NCBI GenBank assembly: GCA_964645865.1
Contig: CAZYCG010000004.1
Location: forward strand, 1 to 44,689
Direction: 5' to 3'
DNA length: 44,689 bases
Source: an uncultured Dehalococcoidia bacterium
Lineage (GTDB): Bacteria > Chloroflexota > Dehalococcoidia > Lucifugimonadales > OSU-TB39
Below, in pieces: positions 34,205 to 40,028 of the stretch. The notes beneath the pieces were generated by a model. That model saw only the letters and a program-made list of their open reading frames with translations. It was not told where the DNA came from and did no database searches. The translations under genes and the position numbers were made by a program. How positions within the stretch are numbered: position 1 is the first letter of the stretch; the number at the start of each line of letters is the position of its first letter.

Positions 34205-35188
34205 TTGGCATCAAACAAAAAAGATGGGTTTCTTATTATTGACGGTTTGAATGTCAGTAATTGGGAAAGCGAAAACGTTTATCGTGATTTGAATAAAGGC
34301 AATGTTAATGCGATTAATGCTACAACAGCTACGTGGGAAAATTATTCGCAAACTCTCGACAATATCGCTGTTTGGTATTCAAAGTTTAATAATAGAACAG
34401 ATATTTCTTTAGTCAGGAAAGTAGATGATATATTCAAAGCATCTGATAATGGTCAGGTAGGAATAATAATAGGGTTTCAAAATGCATCTCCAATCGAAAA
34501 TAATTTAGATTATTTATATACATTTGATGAACTTAACGTAAAAATAATTCAATTCACTTATCATGAGAGGAATTTATTAGGTAATGGTTGTTACGAACGG
34601 GTAGATGAAGGAATAACAAATTTTGGGATTGACGCAATTAAAATAATGAATGAAGTCGGGATTTTGATTGATTTGTCTCATGTAGGTATAGTAACAACTA
34701 TGGAGACTATCGACTATTCGGAGAAACCTATAGCTATAACCCATGCTAATCCAAAGTCTTATCATAACGTCCCAAGAAATAAAACTGATGAAGCGTTGAA
34801 ACTAATGGCCTCTAAAGGAGGAATTGTAGGTGTTACAGCTATTGCTCCATTTTTAAAAAAAGGGAATGCTTCTACTGTTGAAGATTATGTTGAGGCGATT
34901 AGTTATACAGTGGATCTAGTAGGTATAGACCATGTGGGTGTTGGTACAGATTTTACCCAAGACCAGCCTGAGGAATTTTGGAGATATATAGGTTCACAGC
35001 AGGGTACTAAGTTTCCTTCTACATTTACTGATGTAACAACTCCATCGAATTATCCAATAAATTTTGAAACTCCAGACAAGTTTCCTGTTTTGATAGATAC
35101 CATGGAAAATAAGGGGTTTTCATCGGAAGAAATAGCGAAGATTCTTGGATTGAATTGGATTAGAGTTTTTCAAGAAGTTTGGGAGTGA
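34205..35188 (+). CDS. Membrane dipeptidase (peptidase M19)-like amidohydrolase
   Basis: IIDGL, GFQN, DLSHVG, THANP, HNVPRNK, GTDF, NWIRV; TTG start with GGAGG RBS. Confidence 0.88.
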   Translation: MASNKKDGFLIIDGLNVSNWESENVYRDLNKGNVNAINATTATWENYSQTLDNIAVWYSKFNNRTDISLVRKVDDIFKASDNGQVGIIIGFQNASPIENNLDYLYTFDELNVKIIQFTYHERNLLGNGCYERVDEGITNFGIDAIKIMNEVGILIDLSHVGIVTTMETIDYSEKPIAITHANPKSYHNVPRNKTDEALKLMASKGGIVGVTAIAPFLKKGNASTVEDYVEAISYTVDLVGIDHVGVGTDFTQDQPEEFWRYIGSQQGTKFPSTFTDVTTPSNYPINFETPDKFPVLIDTMENKGFSSEEIAKILGLNWIRVFQEVWE

Positions 35189-35196
35189 TTAGGAAT

Positions 35197-36327
35197 TTAG
35201 AGGTAAGTTTCAATAGATAGATCATAAATTTTGCCATTATATTCAATTTTGTATTTTTGAAAATCAACTTCTGAATGTTCTTTGATTTTGTTTGAATCGG
35301 TTATTTTTTTTCCACTGTTTAAGTTTATCTCAAAATCTTTGTTGTCATACATGATTCTAATATTGGCATCTTGTCCACTTACAGTAGAAGCTAAAGATTT
35401 TATCGCTTTTTCGTAACTAAATAATATTAGGTGAGCTTCATTTAAACTGACTGGCCTAAAATTAATTTTATGATTTGGACCAGCTTGAGCTAGTTTTGAA
35501 ATATCAGGAGAGATTACACTTCCTATTTTTGAATATCCTCCAGTAGTTCCTCTATCAGCCATTAAAATAATTGGTTGCCCGTTCCCAGGTATTTGTATAG
35601 CTCCAAATTCAGTTCCGCTAGATATTATATCGGCACCACCATTATGATTTATACTTGGTCCATTTAAGCGATACCCTATGCGATTCGAGTTTGATGATAT
35701 TGTGTATGTGGATTCCCAAAGACGAGCGATTGATTCTCTACTAAATTTATTAAGTGAATTTGATATTAGGATTCGAAGTTCCAAAGGATTTGATGGTATG
35801 ACAAAATCAAAACCGGTTAGAAAGGAAGTTTTTATGTATTCATCATTGGAGTTTATTCCTTTAAATAAGACATCACCTGTTTTTAATATTCTTCCTTCTT
35901 GACCTCCAAATTTACCGGTTAAATAAGTTGAATGGCTGCCCATTATTAAGGGAGAGTCAAATCCACCTTTTACGGATAAATAATTTATAATCCCTTGTTT
36001 AGGTGATTCGAACGATATTATATCGCCTTTAGAAATTTCTATGGGCTGCCAAAGTTGTATTTGTTTTTCGTTAAGTTTCACTAAGCTTTTTGCGCCAGTT
36101 ACAGCAATAATAGCATTATCTAGAGCAGTTAATTTAGGTCCCAAAAATGTAGTTTCTAGACAAGCGAAATTCAATGGATTGTTTAATAAAGTATTTGCCG
36201 CTTTAAATGAAAATGAATCCATTGGGCCCGAGACTGGTACACCAATATTTTGGAATCCATATCTGCCAAGATCTTGAATGGTAGTTTGTGGTCCAGGGTC
36301 ATTGATCTCAAATACTTTAGTTTTCAT
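35197..36327 (-). CDS. pxpC: 5-oxoprolinase subunit C / biotin-dependent carboxyltransferase-family protein with C-terminal extension
   Basis: TTIQDLGR, GVPVSGPMD, GSHST, SNRIGYRL, GAIQIP.NGQPIILMADRGTTGGY. Confidence 0.9.
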   Translation of the reverse strand: MKTKVFEINDPGPQTTIQDLGRYGFQNIGVPVSGPMDSFSFKAANTLLNNPLNFACLETTFLGPKLTALDNAIIAVTGAKSLVKLNEKQIQLWQPIEISKGDIISFESPKQGIINYLSVKGGFDSPLIMGSHSTYLTGKFGGQEGRILKTGDVLFKGINSNDEYIKTSFLTGFDFVIPSNPLELRILISNSLNKFSRESIARLWESTYTISSNSNRIGYRLNGPSINHNGGADIISSGTEFGAIQIPGNGQPIILMADRGTTGGYSKIGSVISPDISKLAQAGPNHKINFRPVSLNEAHLILFSYEKAIKSLASTVSGQDANIRIMYDNKDFEINLNSGKKITDSNKIKEHSEVDFQKYKIEYNGKIYDLSIETYL

Positions 36328-37054
36328 TGTTTATGCTCTTATTTGGCTTGAATTTGTCAGTTTTAACCAAATTAAATATAGTTTCATATTCATCTATAGA
36401 TTTTAATGGGACAAATCTTATCAGGTCTCCAGGCGTTATAAGTGAAGGAGGATTTTTTTCATGATTGAAAAGTATAAGAGGAGTTTTTCCTATGAGTTGC
36501 CATCCACCAGGACTCTCACTAGGATAGATACCCGTTTGTTTGTCAGCAATCCCTACTGATCCTGCTGGTATTAGTGTTCTTGGAGTTGTTAATCTAGGAG
36601 TAGATATAGATTCTTCCATGCCTCCTAAATAAGGGAAGCCTGGAGTGAATCCAAGCATGTAGACAAGGTATTTGGGAGTAGAATGGATTTCAATAACTTG
36701 ATCAGTAGTTAAATTATTATGTTCGGCCACAAATTCTAAATCTTCACCATATATATCACCGTATAGCACTGGTATGTCTATCACTGTTTGTTTTGTTAAC
36801 TCGCTTTCAAGTTTTGATAACTGTTGTTCAATTATTTTAATCAAATGTTCATTAGATAACTCAGAGGGATTATATTGTATGAGTATTGAATTGTATGATG
36901 GGATTAATCCTGTTATTCCGAAATGCGAATTTTCTTTCAATAGGTTAAATAAGGTATGTACTTTGTTATTGATATCGGGGTTTATTTCATCCCTAAATCT
37001 TACAGAGACAAAGCAATCGCTTGTTGATTCTATTGTTGGGTTATCTGTGTTCAT
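36317..37054 (-). CDS. pxpB: 5-oxoprolinase subunit B (KipI/AHS1 family)
   Basis: IPVLYG, YMLGFTPGFPYL, PR..TPR..IPAGSVGIA, YPSESPGGWQLIG. Confidence 0.92.
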   Translation of the reverse strand: MNTDNPTIESTSDCFVSVRFRDEINPDINNKVHTLFNLLKENSHFGITGLIPSYNSILIQYNPSELSNEHLIKIIEQQLSKLESELTKQTVIDIPVLYGDIYGEDLEFVAEHNNLTTDQVIEIHSTPKYLVYMLGFTPGFPYLGGMEESISTPRLTTPRTLIPAGSVGIADKQTGIYPSESPGGWQLIGKTPLILFNHEKNPPSLITPGDLIRFVPLKSIDEYETIFNLVKTDKFKPNKSINNEN

Positions 37055-37083: not shown

Positions 37084-37851
37084 TTAACTAGCTATATTTT
37101 GTAAAGGTATAATTTCTACACCTGCAGATTTGAGAGTGTTATTTATGTTCATAGCCATTTGTACTGCTCCGGGGGTGTCGCCATGTATGCACAAACTATC
37201 AGCTTCAACTTCAATTTCATTGCCACTTATTGTAGTAGCGATACCTTCAATTACCATTTGATTACTTCTATCTGCAACTTCATTCACATCGTGTAAAACC
37301 GAACCTTCTTTCGACCTCGAGACCAAAGATCCATCATCGTTAAGAGCCCTGTCTGCAAATATTTCATTATATGCTTTCAACCCCATTTCTTTTGCGGTTT
37401 TTACCCATTTCGAACCAGATAAAGCTAGAAGTATTAGATTTGAATCATATTCTAGTATAGCTTCACAGATTGTTTTAGCTATTTTTTCATTAACAACAGC
37501 TTGGTTGTATAGAGCTCCATGGGGTTTTACATGTTGTAATTTTTTATCTTTAGTAAATGCTTGCAGAGCACCTATTTGATAAAGAATATCTGATTTTAAT
37601 TCGTCCGAAGAAATATCCATGTTTCTTCTGCCAAATCCAGCTAAATCTGGATAGCTTGGGTGAGCACCGATTTCTACACCATGATTTTGTGCAAGTGTAA
37701 CTGTTTTGTTCATCCAAATAGGATCTCCTGCATGAAATCCGCATGCTATATTCGCAGAACTTATATACTTGATTACTTCTTCATCATGACCTAATTTATA
37801 CATTCCAAAACTTTCGCCCATATCGCAGTTTATGTCGACTTGTTTTGCCAT
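37084..37851 (-). CDS. pxpA: 5-oxoprolinase subunit A (LamB/YcsF family)
   Basis: DINCDMGES, ACGFHAGD, GAHPSYPD..GFGRR, HVKPHGALYN, CIHGD. Confidence 0.95.
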   Translation of the reverse strand: MAKQVDINCDMGESFGMYKLGHDEEVIKYISSANIACGFHAGDPIWMNKTVTLAQNHGVEIGAHPSYPDLAGFGRRNMDISSDELKSDILYQIGALQAFTKDKKLQHVKPHGALYNQAVVNEKIAKTICEAILEYDSNLILLALSGSKWVKTAKEMGLKAYNEIFADRALNDDGSLVSRSKEGSVLHDVNEVADRSNQMVIEGIATTISGNEIEVEADSLCIHGDTPGAVQMAMNINNTLKSAGVEIIPLQNIAS

Positions 37852-38042: not shown

Positions 38043-38300
38043 ATGGATAATCAAGTTCTTGCGGAAGCTTTAACTCTAACTTTAATAGGCGTTGGTACTG
38101 CTTTTGTTTTGTTGATTGTATTAATGTTATCAATAAAAACAATGTCCTATTTATTAGCGAAATTTTTAAAGAAACCGATGTTTGATGGTGTTGAGAATGA
38201 GTCTTCGTTAACTACTGACGATAACAGGGATAAAATTATAGCTGCTACTTTGGGAATAGCTGCATATAGAGCTCTATTGTCGAAACAGAAATCCGGATAA
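38043..38300 (+). CDS. oadG: OadG/MmdD-like subunit of Na+-translocating decarboxylase
   Basis: Single N-terminal TM helix (LTLIGVGTAFVLLIVL), linker, IIAA..IAAY helix; directly upstream of the beta subunit. Confidence 0.8.
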   Translation: MDNQVLAEALTLTLIGVGTAFVLLIVLMLSIKTMSYLLAKFLKKPMFDGVENESSLTTDDNRDKIIAATLGIAAYRALLSKQKSG

Positions 38301-39596: not shown

Positions 39597-40028
39597 ATGG
39601 ATAAGAAATTTAAGATTAAAGTAAGTGAAACATGGTACAGCGTTGAAATTATTGATTTAGATGCTAATAAAGCTATTGTGTCTGTTGATGGTGAAGAGAT
39701 ATCAGTGGAAATAATTGAAGATGTTGTTGGCAATGTTGAACAAGATCCTGTAGTGCCTCTTGAGCAGGACTTTAAAGCCGAAACTCAACCTTCTTCTCCT
39801 AAAAAAATATCTGCTCCTAAAGTTTTTAAATCTCCTATGCCAGGTGTGATAATATCCGTAGCACATAAAGAAGGTGATAATGTTATCACTGGTGATGAAG
39901 TATGTGTTTTGGAAGCAATGAAGATGCAGCAAACATTGAAAGCCGATTGGAGTGGTGTTGTAAAGAAAGTGCATGTTAAATCAGGTGACCAAGTACTTGA
40001 CGGTGATCCAATATTAGAACTTGAATAA
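39597..40028 (+). CDS. Biotin carboxyl carrier subunit (MmdC/GcdC-like)
   Basis: SPMPG, VLEAMKM biotinylation motif; N-terminal double beta-hairpin and Pro/Ala linker. Confidence 0.93.
   Translation: MDKKFKIKVSETWYSVEIIDLDANKAIVSVDGEEISVEIIEDVVGNVEQDPVVPLEQDFKAETQPSSPKKISAPKVFKSPMPGVIISVAHKEGDNVITGDEVCVLEAMKMQQTLKADWSGVVKKVHVKSGDQVLDGDPILELE

Follow-up and report, generated by a model that had tools for sequence, protein, structure and literature searches.

What could a short additional tail on a subunit of a 5-oxoprolinase-type enzyme be for? The question arises from a 44,689-nucleotide stretch of DNA from an uncultured Dehalococcoidia bacterium (contig CAZYCG010000004.1, the whole of which is here called the window), in which genes for PxpA-, PxpB- and PxpC-like proteins lie divergent from genes for OadG, OadB and a small biotin carrier. 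The PxpC-like protein ends in a tail whose sequence suggests that PxpC is attached to the products of these neighbouring sodium-pump and biotin-carrier genes. In our best reading, which draws on structure prediction, the tail would be a four-stranded (two-hairpin) beta-sheet association module resembling the PT, BT and AD domains. The most economical reading of its origin is that a PxpC clade acquired this sheet or retained it from a fused ancestor. By analogy with studied biotin enzymes, we give a probability of about one half to the proposal that strands of the tail and of the carrier enclose a helix of OadG where an oadG-oadB-carrier cassette is present.

The additional tail of PxpC

The gene and the parts of its product are as follows.

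35197 to 36327, minus strand: pxpC-like gene, 376 aa, with a CT_A_B core (residues 1-313) and the tail (open reading frame, Pfam PF02626, TIGR00724)
35200 to 35388, minus strand: PxpC C-terminal tail, residues 314-376, past where the PxpC models and E. coli YbgK stop
35320 to 35364, minus strand: tail hairpin 1, residues 322-336, NIRIMYDNKDFEINL (predicted strands; hhalign match to carrier hairpin 2)
35203 to 35268, minus strand: tail hairpin 2, residues 354-375, including KYKIEYNGKIYDLSI (predicted strands; hhalign match to one-hairpin tails)

The window PxpC matches PF02626 with 282.8 bits (cut-off 25, E 4e-84) and TIGR00724 with 295.1 bits (cut-off 230.2), and scores 214.4 bits against the equivalog PxpC model NF045499, under its cut-off of 500. 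As judged by these models it is a member of the family that is not certified as a canonical 5-oxoprolinase subunit. Pfam CT_A_B spans its residues 28-292, the NCBIfam PxpC model (306 positions) stops at residue 313, and E. coli YbgK (5dud, 310 aa) was aligned to residues 10-299. Because the core models and YbgK stop by about residue 313, residues 314-376 are additional, about 63 residues past the end of the family. An extra C-terminal tail had been claimed in an earlier note on this DNA, made by a model from the letters alone, and is borne out; the interval given there, 35197-35364, corresponds to residues 322-376 plus the stop codon, and the strings quoted from the tail and from the start of the carrier (39597-40028) are all present. 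The accompanying statement that ordinary PxpC ends near the core describes one part of the family only. A homolog search gave 3431 matches at E <= 1e-10, and among the best 120 listed, for which lengths were read, 46 are shorter than 330 aa, 21 have 330-359 aa and 53 have at least 360 aa.

The tail is conserved. Among five close orthologs its identity is 46-67%, versus 72-78% for the core, and the two-hairpin pattern is kept in homologs with a core identity of about 40%. In an alignment of the window PxpC with 39 of 52 homologs sized 360-395 aa (40 sequences, A1), hairpin 1 takes the shared form l-r-V-l-V-D-G-x-x-f-E-V and the terminal hairpin the form a-T-V-x-G-x-x-Y-x-F-E-V-x-V; PxpC forms of about 345 aa retain the terminal hairpin alone. 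AlphaFold2 run on A1 (mean predicted local distance difference test score, pLDDT, 85.5) places a helix at residues 295-317 and strands at 325-327, 330-332, 354-363 and 366-375, with block pLDDT of 75-90 across the tail, a prediction of two beta-hairpins, or four strands, after the core. A tail unconserved or disordered in orthologs was the outcome by which the earlier note would have judged its proposal mistaken; the tail is not unconserved, and the model does not predict it to be disordered.

Modelled without the core, the tail reached a pLDDT of 70 and a predicted template modelling score of 0.37. With this model, a Foldseek search against the PDB gave a best E of 0.23 and VIA-align wide a best Z of 4.1, neither match being a biotin enzyme. 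The full-length PxpC model has structural matches only to PxpC and urea-carboxylase cores, and a search of the ESM Atlas with the tail returned nothing usable. A tail profile recovered the window's own tail from the window's genome (E 1.2e-17); over 201 genomes of the class it scored strongly only in the window's genome, and is too insensitive for a census.

Hairpins shared with small biotin carriers

The carrier gene of the window encodes a protein with two hairpins ahead of its biotinyl domain.

39597 to 40028, plus strand: small biotin carrier, 143 aa, with the motif EAMKM (Pfam PF00364, residues 76-142, 69.1 bits)
39603 to 39716, plus strand: the two N-terminal hairpins of the carrier, residues 3-40, kept in 12 cassette carriers and aligning to the PycB/OadA linker and to 5ks8_C

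The relationship between tails and carriers was examined with alignments of 20 two-hairpin tails (A2), 22 one-hairpin tails (A6) and 12 N-termini of cassette carriers (A3). By hhalign, A2 and A6 match with an E of 1.6e-5 and a probability of 79%, the window's QKYKIEYNGKIYDLSIET pairing with the single hairpin, and A3 matches A6 with an E of 9.5e-5. Between A2 and A3, tail hairpin 1 is matched to carrier hairpin 2 (E 2.3e-4, probability 44%, 15 columns). The earlier note had proposed profile and structure searches of the tail: profile-profile comparison linked the window's own tail and carrier, at E 1.6e-5 to 2.3e-4, less strongly than the HMM search below links one-hairpin tails to carriers, and Foldseek gave no informative match.

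A hidden Markov model (HMM), built on the C-terminal 24 residues of one-hairpin PxpC tails (23 sequences), was run over the 8413 open reading frames (ORFs) of the fetched loci. Beyond its training tails it found only the N-termini of biotin carriers (residues 2-22, E 1.3e-6 to 2e-2), and ORFs unrelated to them began at an E of about 6. In the reverse search with an HMM of carrier N-termini, PxpC tails topped the sub-threshold list (best E 0.048), none being individually significant. The motif h-x-h-x-V-N/D-G-x-x-Y/F-x-V-x-V-E is common to small-carrier N-termini and PxpC tails. These family-level links, significant except for the weak one between A2 and A3, indicate that the tail hairpins and those at the N-terminus of small biotin carriers are probably one and the same module.

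Other searches delimit this likeness. A scan of NCBIfam at E up to 10 assigned no family to either the 67-aa tail or the 58-aa carrier N-terminus. The A2 profile, searched against 1.84 billion representative proteins, gave 129 matches without any biotin carrier; judged by length and match position, they are C-terminal fragments of PxpC, full PxpCs and long repetitive proteins. Because this search fell short of carriers, the relationship is that of a short shared motif, not of a long alignable domain. A complex prediction of tail, carrier N-terminus and OadG C-terminus, run without controls, scored 0.19 versus a mark of 0.32, which speaks neither for nor against docking.

Gene context and rival explanations

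The remaining features around the two gene sets of the window are these.

36317 to 37054, minus strand: pxpB-like gene, CT_C_D (Pfam PF02682, E 5e-71; TIGR00370, 219.7 bits, over its cut-off)
37084 to 37851, minus strand: pxpA-like gene, LamB/YcsF (Pfam PF03746, E 3e-101)
38043 to 38300, plus strand: oadG-like membrane anchor, 85 aa (Pfam PF04277, 31.3 bits versus a cut-off of 27)
38226 to 38282, plus strand: alanine-rich C-terminal helix of OadG, residues about 62-80, a conserved block and proposed core of a docking domain, a role suggested by parts of PMC7274780 and PMC5059739
38400 to 39569, plus strand: oadB, beta subunit of Na+-translocating carboxybiotin decarboxylase (Pfam PF03977, E 2.5e-139, 464.6 bits)

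The genes pxpA, pxpB and pxpC adjoin one another on the minus strand, pxpB and pxpA lying upstream of pxpC in one operon, and no additional pxp genes occur 3' of pxpC on that strand in the window. Divergent from pxpA, with 191 bp between, is oadG; oadG, oadB and the carrier gene are all on the plus strand. The set of a Na+-translocating biotin decarboxylase (OAD/MMD/GCD), namely OadB, an OadG-type anchor and a carrier with AMKM, is present in the window. The PxpB-like protein, 245 residues long, runs about 30-40 residues past its family models, of which CT_C_D stops at 205 and TIGR00370 at 215. An M19 membrane dipeptidase gene (34205-35188, plus strand) is convergent with pxpC, the stop codons being 8 bp apart, and gives a context of peptide or amino-acid salvage beside an oxoprolinase-type operon.

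We scanned loci with one genome per species and analysed the best 80 of 593 confirmed PxpC loci, classing their tails by reading: 26 are long, 24 have one hairpin, one is fused to a biotinyl domain and 29 lack a hairpin tail. Within the flanking DNA fetched, which reached up to 10 kb on either side, an oadB gene was found at 13/26 long-tailed loci, at the single fused locus, at 2/24 one-hairpin loci and at 0/29 untailed loci. Four of the long-tailed loci lacking oadB are on short or truncated contigs. Six long-tailed genomes without an adjacent oadB carry the same compact oadG-oadB-two-hairpin-carrier cassette elsewhere, and in one more (L054) oadB is more distant and has other neighbours. Two-hairpin tails pair with two-hairpin carriers, as read from the carrier N-terminus, in 12 of the 13 oadB-adjacent loci, the other (L047) showing no carrier. 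In six untailed Dehalococcoidia genomes, oadB stands beside a 73-aa hairpin-less carrier (four) or beside no recognised carrier (two).

Relatives of the window join the two gene sets more closely. Of 200 genomes sampled evenly from its class, 21 have PxpC, not counting that of the window. Five of these belong to the same order as the window, and four of the five carry a single operon, pxpA-pxpB-pxpC-oadG-BCCP-oadB (BCCP, biotin carboxyl carrier protein), with oadB 1-2 kb downstream on the same strand, and with short two-hairpin tails and two-hairpin carriers. These operons (L114-L117, in G109, G144, G168 and G222) are flanked by genes for a GFO/IDH/MocA oxidoreductase, a DHDPS-family lyase and a TauE-type exporter, which hint at a catabolic pathway that may act on a substrate other than 5-oxoproline. 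The fifth genome (L118, G272:C8) has pxpA, pxpB, pxpC, a 116-aa ORF and a two-hairpin carrier, with a DHDPS-family gene in the place where oadB would be and no oadB match genome-wide.

Fusions provide further arrangements. In an uncultured Thermotogae (L031), the operon order is OadG::hairpins::BCCP, oadB, pxpA, pxpB, PxpC::hairpins::BCCP. OadG and PxpC are both fused to biotinyl domains, and the operon therefore holds two carrier domains.

L031, 4760 to 5380, plus strand: OadG::hairpins::biotinyl fusion, 206 aa, motif SLKM
L031, 8039 to 9376, plus strand: PxpC::hairpins::biotinyl fusion, 445 aa, motif AMKM

The extension of this PxpC runs hairpin, hairpin, linker, biotinyl domain and aligns to PycB 463-590 and OadA 463-581. 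A PxpB-PxpC-BCCP fusion of 664 aa (P0121) was also found. Genes for tailed PxpC are joined to oadG, oadB and BCCP, by linkage or by fusion, in several ways. Two side observations concern single loci. At L031 a gene of the arylmalonate-decarboxylase / Asp-Glu-racemase family lies 3' of pxpC. A record labelled Varibaculum timonense (L074, G068:C3:215882-223618) holds a Tissierellaceae-like pxp locus with two identical oadB copies 6.6 kb apart, which may reflect duplication, or else an artefact of assembly or binning.

The window's genome (1.49 Mb, 81% complete) holds one oadB and one CT_A_B gene, and was found at this completeness to have no PYC_OADA match and no Biotin_carb_C match. Its sole Carboxyl_trans match lies beside leuD and ftsK.

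G000:C32, 9721 to 11028 (L006, 1219 to 2982), minus strand: fused AccD-AccA carboxyltransferase, 587 aa

Neither a biotin carboxylase nor an AccB-type carrier for AccD-AccA was found in this 81%-complete genome, in which the window carrier is the only short Biotin_lipoyl ORF found; either the biotin carboxylase and AccB genes are unassembled, or the window carrier is shared with AccD-AccA. A pump carboxyltransferase of known type (OadA with HMGL/PYC_OADA, or MmdA/GcdA with Carboxyl_trans) is found neither in the operon nor in the genome, an absence that 81% completeness does not prove. With no other carboxyltransferase found, PxpBC is left as a candidate partner of the pump.

Several observations weigh against attachment to the pump, or against its being the exclusive role of the tail. 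In the window itself, BLASTP gives no alignment between the tail and the carrier N-terminus, a pair that is not significantly alike, and the one-hairpin HMM scores neither of the window's own proteins significantly (carrier E 7.4, tail E 430); the claim that this tail mimics the hairpins of its neighbouring carrier stands for the families, through the HMM and hhalign links, and not for the pair. The Fisher p of 7e-6 for oadB adjacency in long-tailed versus untailed loci overstates independence, since the genomes are kin. No oadB match was found in six long-tailed genomes (L009, L012, L014, L023, L025 and L048). The first five, a nested subclade, have a well conserved tail and no 130-170-aa carrier, their biotin/lipoyl ORFs being of E2 size, of about 630 aa or of 76-100 aa. 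Three of them (L012, L014, L023) are single-chromosome assemblies, and the neighbourhood of pxpC in this group consists of unrelated genes. In a quick tree, which has the window PxpC on a long, compositionally odd branch of unsure placement, the group is nested next to an oadB-adjacent sister.

Elsewhere the tail and the pump are likewise separate. All nine genomes of family f24 have a tailed PxpC and an unlinked oadB, with matches to the two-hairpin carrier in 0/9; the two that were inspected have oadB without a BCCP or OadG neighbour.

L127, 6672 to 7811 (G100), and L129, 6615 to 7898 (G163): f24 oadB homologs with neither OadG nor a carrier recognisable beside them

In G100 two Amidohydro_3 genes follow oadB; the products of these two oadB genes appear as orphan pump subunits. 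For most one-hairpin PxpC genes (22/24) the locus is pxpA-(about 400-aa gene)-pxpB-pxpC and lacks an oadB in its vicinity; the 400-aa gene encodes an Nramp protein in L064, the one locus scanned. L064 is itself one of the two exceptions, and its oadB operon has its own Carboxyl_trans gene; the adjacency there may be coincidental. Nor is the carrier confined to genomes with PxpC, which is absent from 17 of the 22 in the class sample that have a two-hairpin carrier. (Counts of two-hairpin carriers are lower bounds, because the A3 search missed carriers visible by eye in G109 and G168.) Two genomes of the window's order have such a carrier after a biotin carboxylase.

L131, 5197 to 7175, and L132, 6460 to 8444: biotin carboxylase of about 520 aa plus two-hairpin carrier, in same-order genomes without PxpC

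The biotin carboxylase stands directly beside the carrier; in these genomes, therefore, an ATP-dependent carboxylase is served by the same type of carrier. At genome level, oadB is present in 20/26 long-tailed, 21/24 one-hairpin and 19/29 untailed cases, which does not discriminate; genome-wide co-occurrence was rejected as a test, oadB being common in these anaerobe-rich lineages whatever the tail. The PxpC tail is therefore more widespread than its association with the pump. An equal occurrence of the tail in genomes lacking oadB had been named in the earlier note as evidence against docking; the L009 group, f24 and the genome-level counts go some way in that direction, whereas adjacency (13/26 versus 0/29) separates the classes. 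What stands of the docking proposal is a conserved tail, predicted to be structured, made of a hairpin module and enriched near oadG-oadB-BCCP genes, but also kept in pump-less lineages. From these lineages and from the carriers of PxpC-less genomes, the hairpin is to be regarded as a general assembly element of biotin enzymes.

The same facts suit an explanation that needs no pump, namely that helix 295-317 and the four strands form a self-contained PT-like element acting in cis, which stabilises or oligomerises PxpBC or PxpABC, while the likeness to carriers reflects shared ancestry only, for instance the fission of a carboxyltransferase-linker-BCCP chain such as that of L031 or urea carboxylase. 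We regard this as possible, at well under even odds. It would account for tails kept in lineages without oadB or a hairpin carrier and in the ordinary pxpA-(about 400-aa gene)-pxpB-pxpC loci; fused forms exist, AlphaFold2 puts a 23-residue helix directly ahead of the strands, and the quick tree, in which an oadB-less subclade is nested beside an oadB-adjacent sister, agrees with a pump that was lost while the tail was kept. That helix, however, is also present in tail-less PxpC according to the 5dud alignment and so is not specific to the tail, and the enrichment by oadG-oadB-BCCP cassettes, the single operons of same-order relatives and the matching numbers of hairpins on tail and carrier are left unexplained.

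A regulatory role for the tail, tethering PxpBC to a biotin carrier to sequester the biotin and not for catalysis, as in the model for MSMEG_0435-0436, seems improbable to us. It has a precedent, in that the PxpC homolog MSMEG_0435 physically binds BCCP-biotin and, as described in parts of PMC13012033, binds a pair of BCCP domains while holding a single biotin, and reduces the activity of propionyl-CoA carboxylase; tailed genomes without oadB also hold the ORFs of about 630 aa with a biotinyl domain. But MSMEG_0435 (chains of 294-318 aa) has no such tail, pxpA is always co-operonic here, which points to an enzyme pathway, and no other carboxyltransferase was found in the window's genome for the pump to serve. 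That the strand pattern is due to chance or composition, and the tail a dispensable extension, is very improbable. BLASTP aligns no part of the window's tail with its carrier, neither short piece has an NCBIfam match, and the tail profile also matches repetitive giant proteins; against this stand conservation across homologs of about 40% identity, the AlphaFold2 confidence over the tail, the significant and specific HMM and hhalign links, and the fusions and gene linkage.

A possible assembly and its relation to known biotin enzymes

Under the association reading, the PxpC sheet and the N-terminal sheet of the carrier would together enclose the alanine-rich C-terminal helix of OadG. A PxpBC-type carboxyltransferase and a carrier, one each, would be tethered to the OadB pump, and PxpBC would exchange a carboxyl group with the carrier. 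An architecture of one helix and two sheets would be rebuilt with two different sheet donors, fixing a 1:1:1 assembly. The OadG C-terminus has a conserved RD(R/K)AxAAAxAVxAL block, in which A67 is invariant among 13 OadG sequences (the window's and 12 relatives). The window carrier aligns, from residue 5, 22 or 24, to positions 467, 471 and 480 of PycB, oadA (TIGR01108) and OadA (NF010643), and to 5ks8_C 498-614. The carrier hairpins therefore occupy the place of the linker between carboxyltransferase and BCCP.

The earlier note took the two divergent operons to form one machine, an idea strengthened by the single pxpABC-oadG-BCCP-oadB operon of same-order relatives and by the fusions, and weakened by a tail that elsewhere occurs apart from the pump. 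PxpABC is regarded as a soluble ATP-dependent 5-oxoprolinase, and to our knowledge only a few carboxyltransferase types (OadA, MmdA/GcdA, malonate) serve sodium-pumping biotin decarboxylases. We tentatively suggest, as a possibility on the unlikely side, that pxpABC and oadG-oadB-BCCP encode a new class of membrane-bound biotin machine, in which a PxpBC-type carboxyltransferase and a carrier are clamped to the OadB pump. Four strands of the PxpC tail, four N-terminal strands of the carrier and the OadG alanine helix would make up the clamp, as a BT-like domain split between chains. If the pump ran in reverse, carboxybiotin would be made at the expense of the sodium gradient; a lactam would be N-carboxylated by PxpBC and opened by PxpA, with release of CO2. 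The sodium-motive force, not ATP, would in that case drive the uphill hydrolysis of 5-oxoproline or of a related lactam. In the forward direction, the set could instead be a new decarboxylase-driven Na+ pump acting on an N-carboxy or carboxy substrate.

That a PxpC bears assembly hairpins, and that it is joined again and again to oadG, oadB and a carrier by linkage or fusion, points towards pump partners of a fourth type and suggests a biotin-dependent, membrane-coupled PxpABC branch in Chloroflexota and Thermotogae. The tail, the carrier N-terminus and the OadG helix may also offer a handle on how split biotin enzymes set the stoichiometry of their subunits. Association hairpins are already known; on their presence on PxpC within a PxpABC-OadGB-carrier gene set, or on a link between PxpABC and OadB, our literature search, which covered articles without supplementary files, found no paper.

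In pyruvate carboxylase, the PT domain forms a sheet around a helix of another subunit. Such sheets likewise wrap a hydrophobic helix of another subunit in MfPC's BT-like domain and in the association domain (AD) of OadA, as parts of PMC5059739 and PMC7274780 describe. In MfPC, a two-subunit pyruvate carboxylase, the linker between carboxyltransferase and BCCP is a four-stranded antiparallel sheet, two such sheets surround one alanine-rich helix of the other subunit (helix to sheets 1:2), and the change A465R abolishes the holoenzyme (PMC5059739, in part). The likeness of the present system to this domain (PDB 5ks8) lies in the 4 + 4 strands and one alanine-rich helix that are available. The two sheets of MfPC come from two identical beta subunits and its helix from biotin carboxylase, whereas in the present proposal PxpC and the carrier would each supply a sheet and OadG the helix; the model of the tail on its own gave no structural match to it.

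For oxaloacetate decarboxylase, the account in parts of PMC7274780 has the OadG C-terminal helix proposed to bind the OadA association domain, of PT-like structure, with a gamma to alpha (OadG:OadA) ratio of 1:2 and loss of alpha upon deletion of the gamma tail. Like that domain, the PxpC tail directly follows a carboxyltransferase and is made of short beta-hairpins. Both systems come with OadG, OadB and a biotin carrier, OadG here keeping the amphipathic alanine-rich C-terminal helix, and the L031 homolog of PxpC has the full order of carboxyltransferase, hairpins and BCCP, its extension aligning to the OadA model as given above. They differ in that the OadA carboxyltransferase is of HMGL/PYC_OADA type, here PxpBC type (urea-carboxylase carboxyltransferase subdomains A-D), and in that the carrier here is a separate chain with hairpins of its own; the window tail alone gives no match to the OadA and PycB models.

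The N-terminus of the transcarboxylase 1.3S subunit has a role in subunit assembly. In small biotin carriers of this kind and of MmdC/GcdC type, the hairpin motif is N-terminal, whereas on PxpC it is C-terminal to a catalytic subunit. Urea carboxylase/urea amidolyase (K. lactis, 3va7, 5i8i) has carboxyltransferase subdomains A-B and C-D homologous to the PxpC and PxpB cores and a covalently linked BCCP, so its carboxyltransferase fold can work with carboxybiotin; it differs in being a single chain with biotin carboxylase, without OadB, OadG or PxpA, and with no hairpin tail identified at the corresponding position. Canonical PxpABC 5-oxoprolinase is described, in parts of PMC13274462, as ATP-dependent and without a biotin partner, its uphill reaction (Keq about 0.035) being canonically ATP-driven. 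With canonical PxpABC (E. coli YbgJKL, B. subtilis PxpABC), the window shares the same three genes in the same order and strong family matches; the E. coli PxpC ends at 310 aa, and that of the window, with its tail, has 376 aa.

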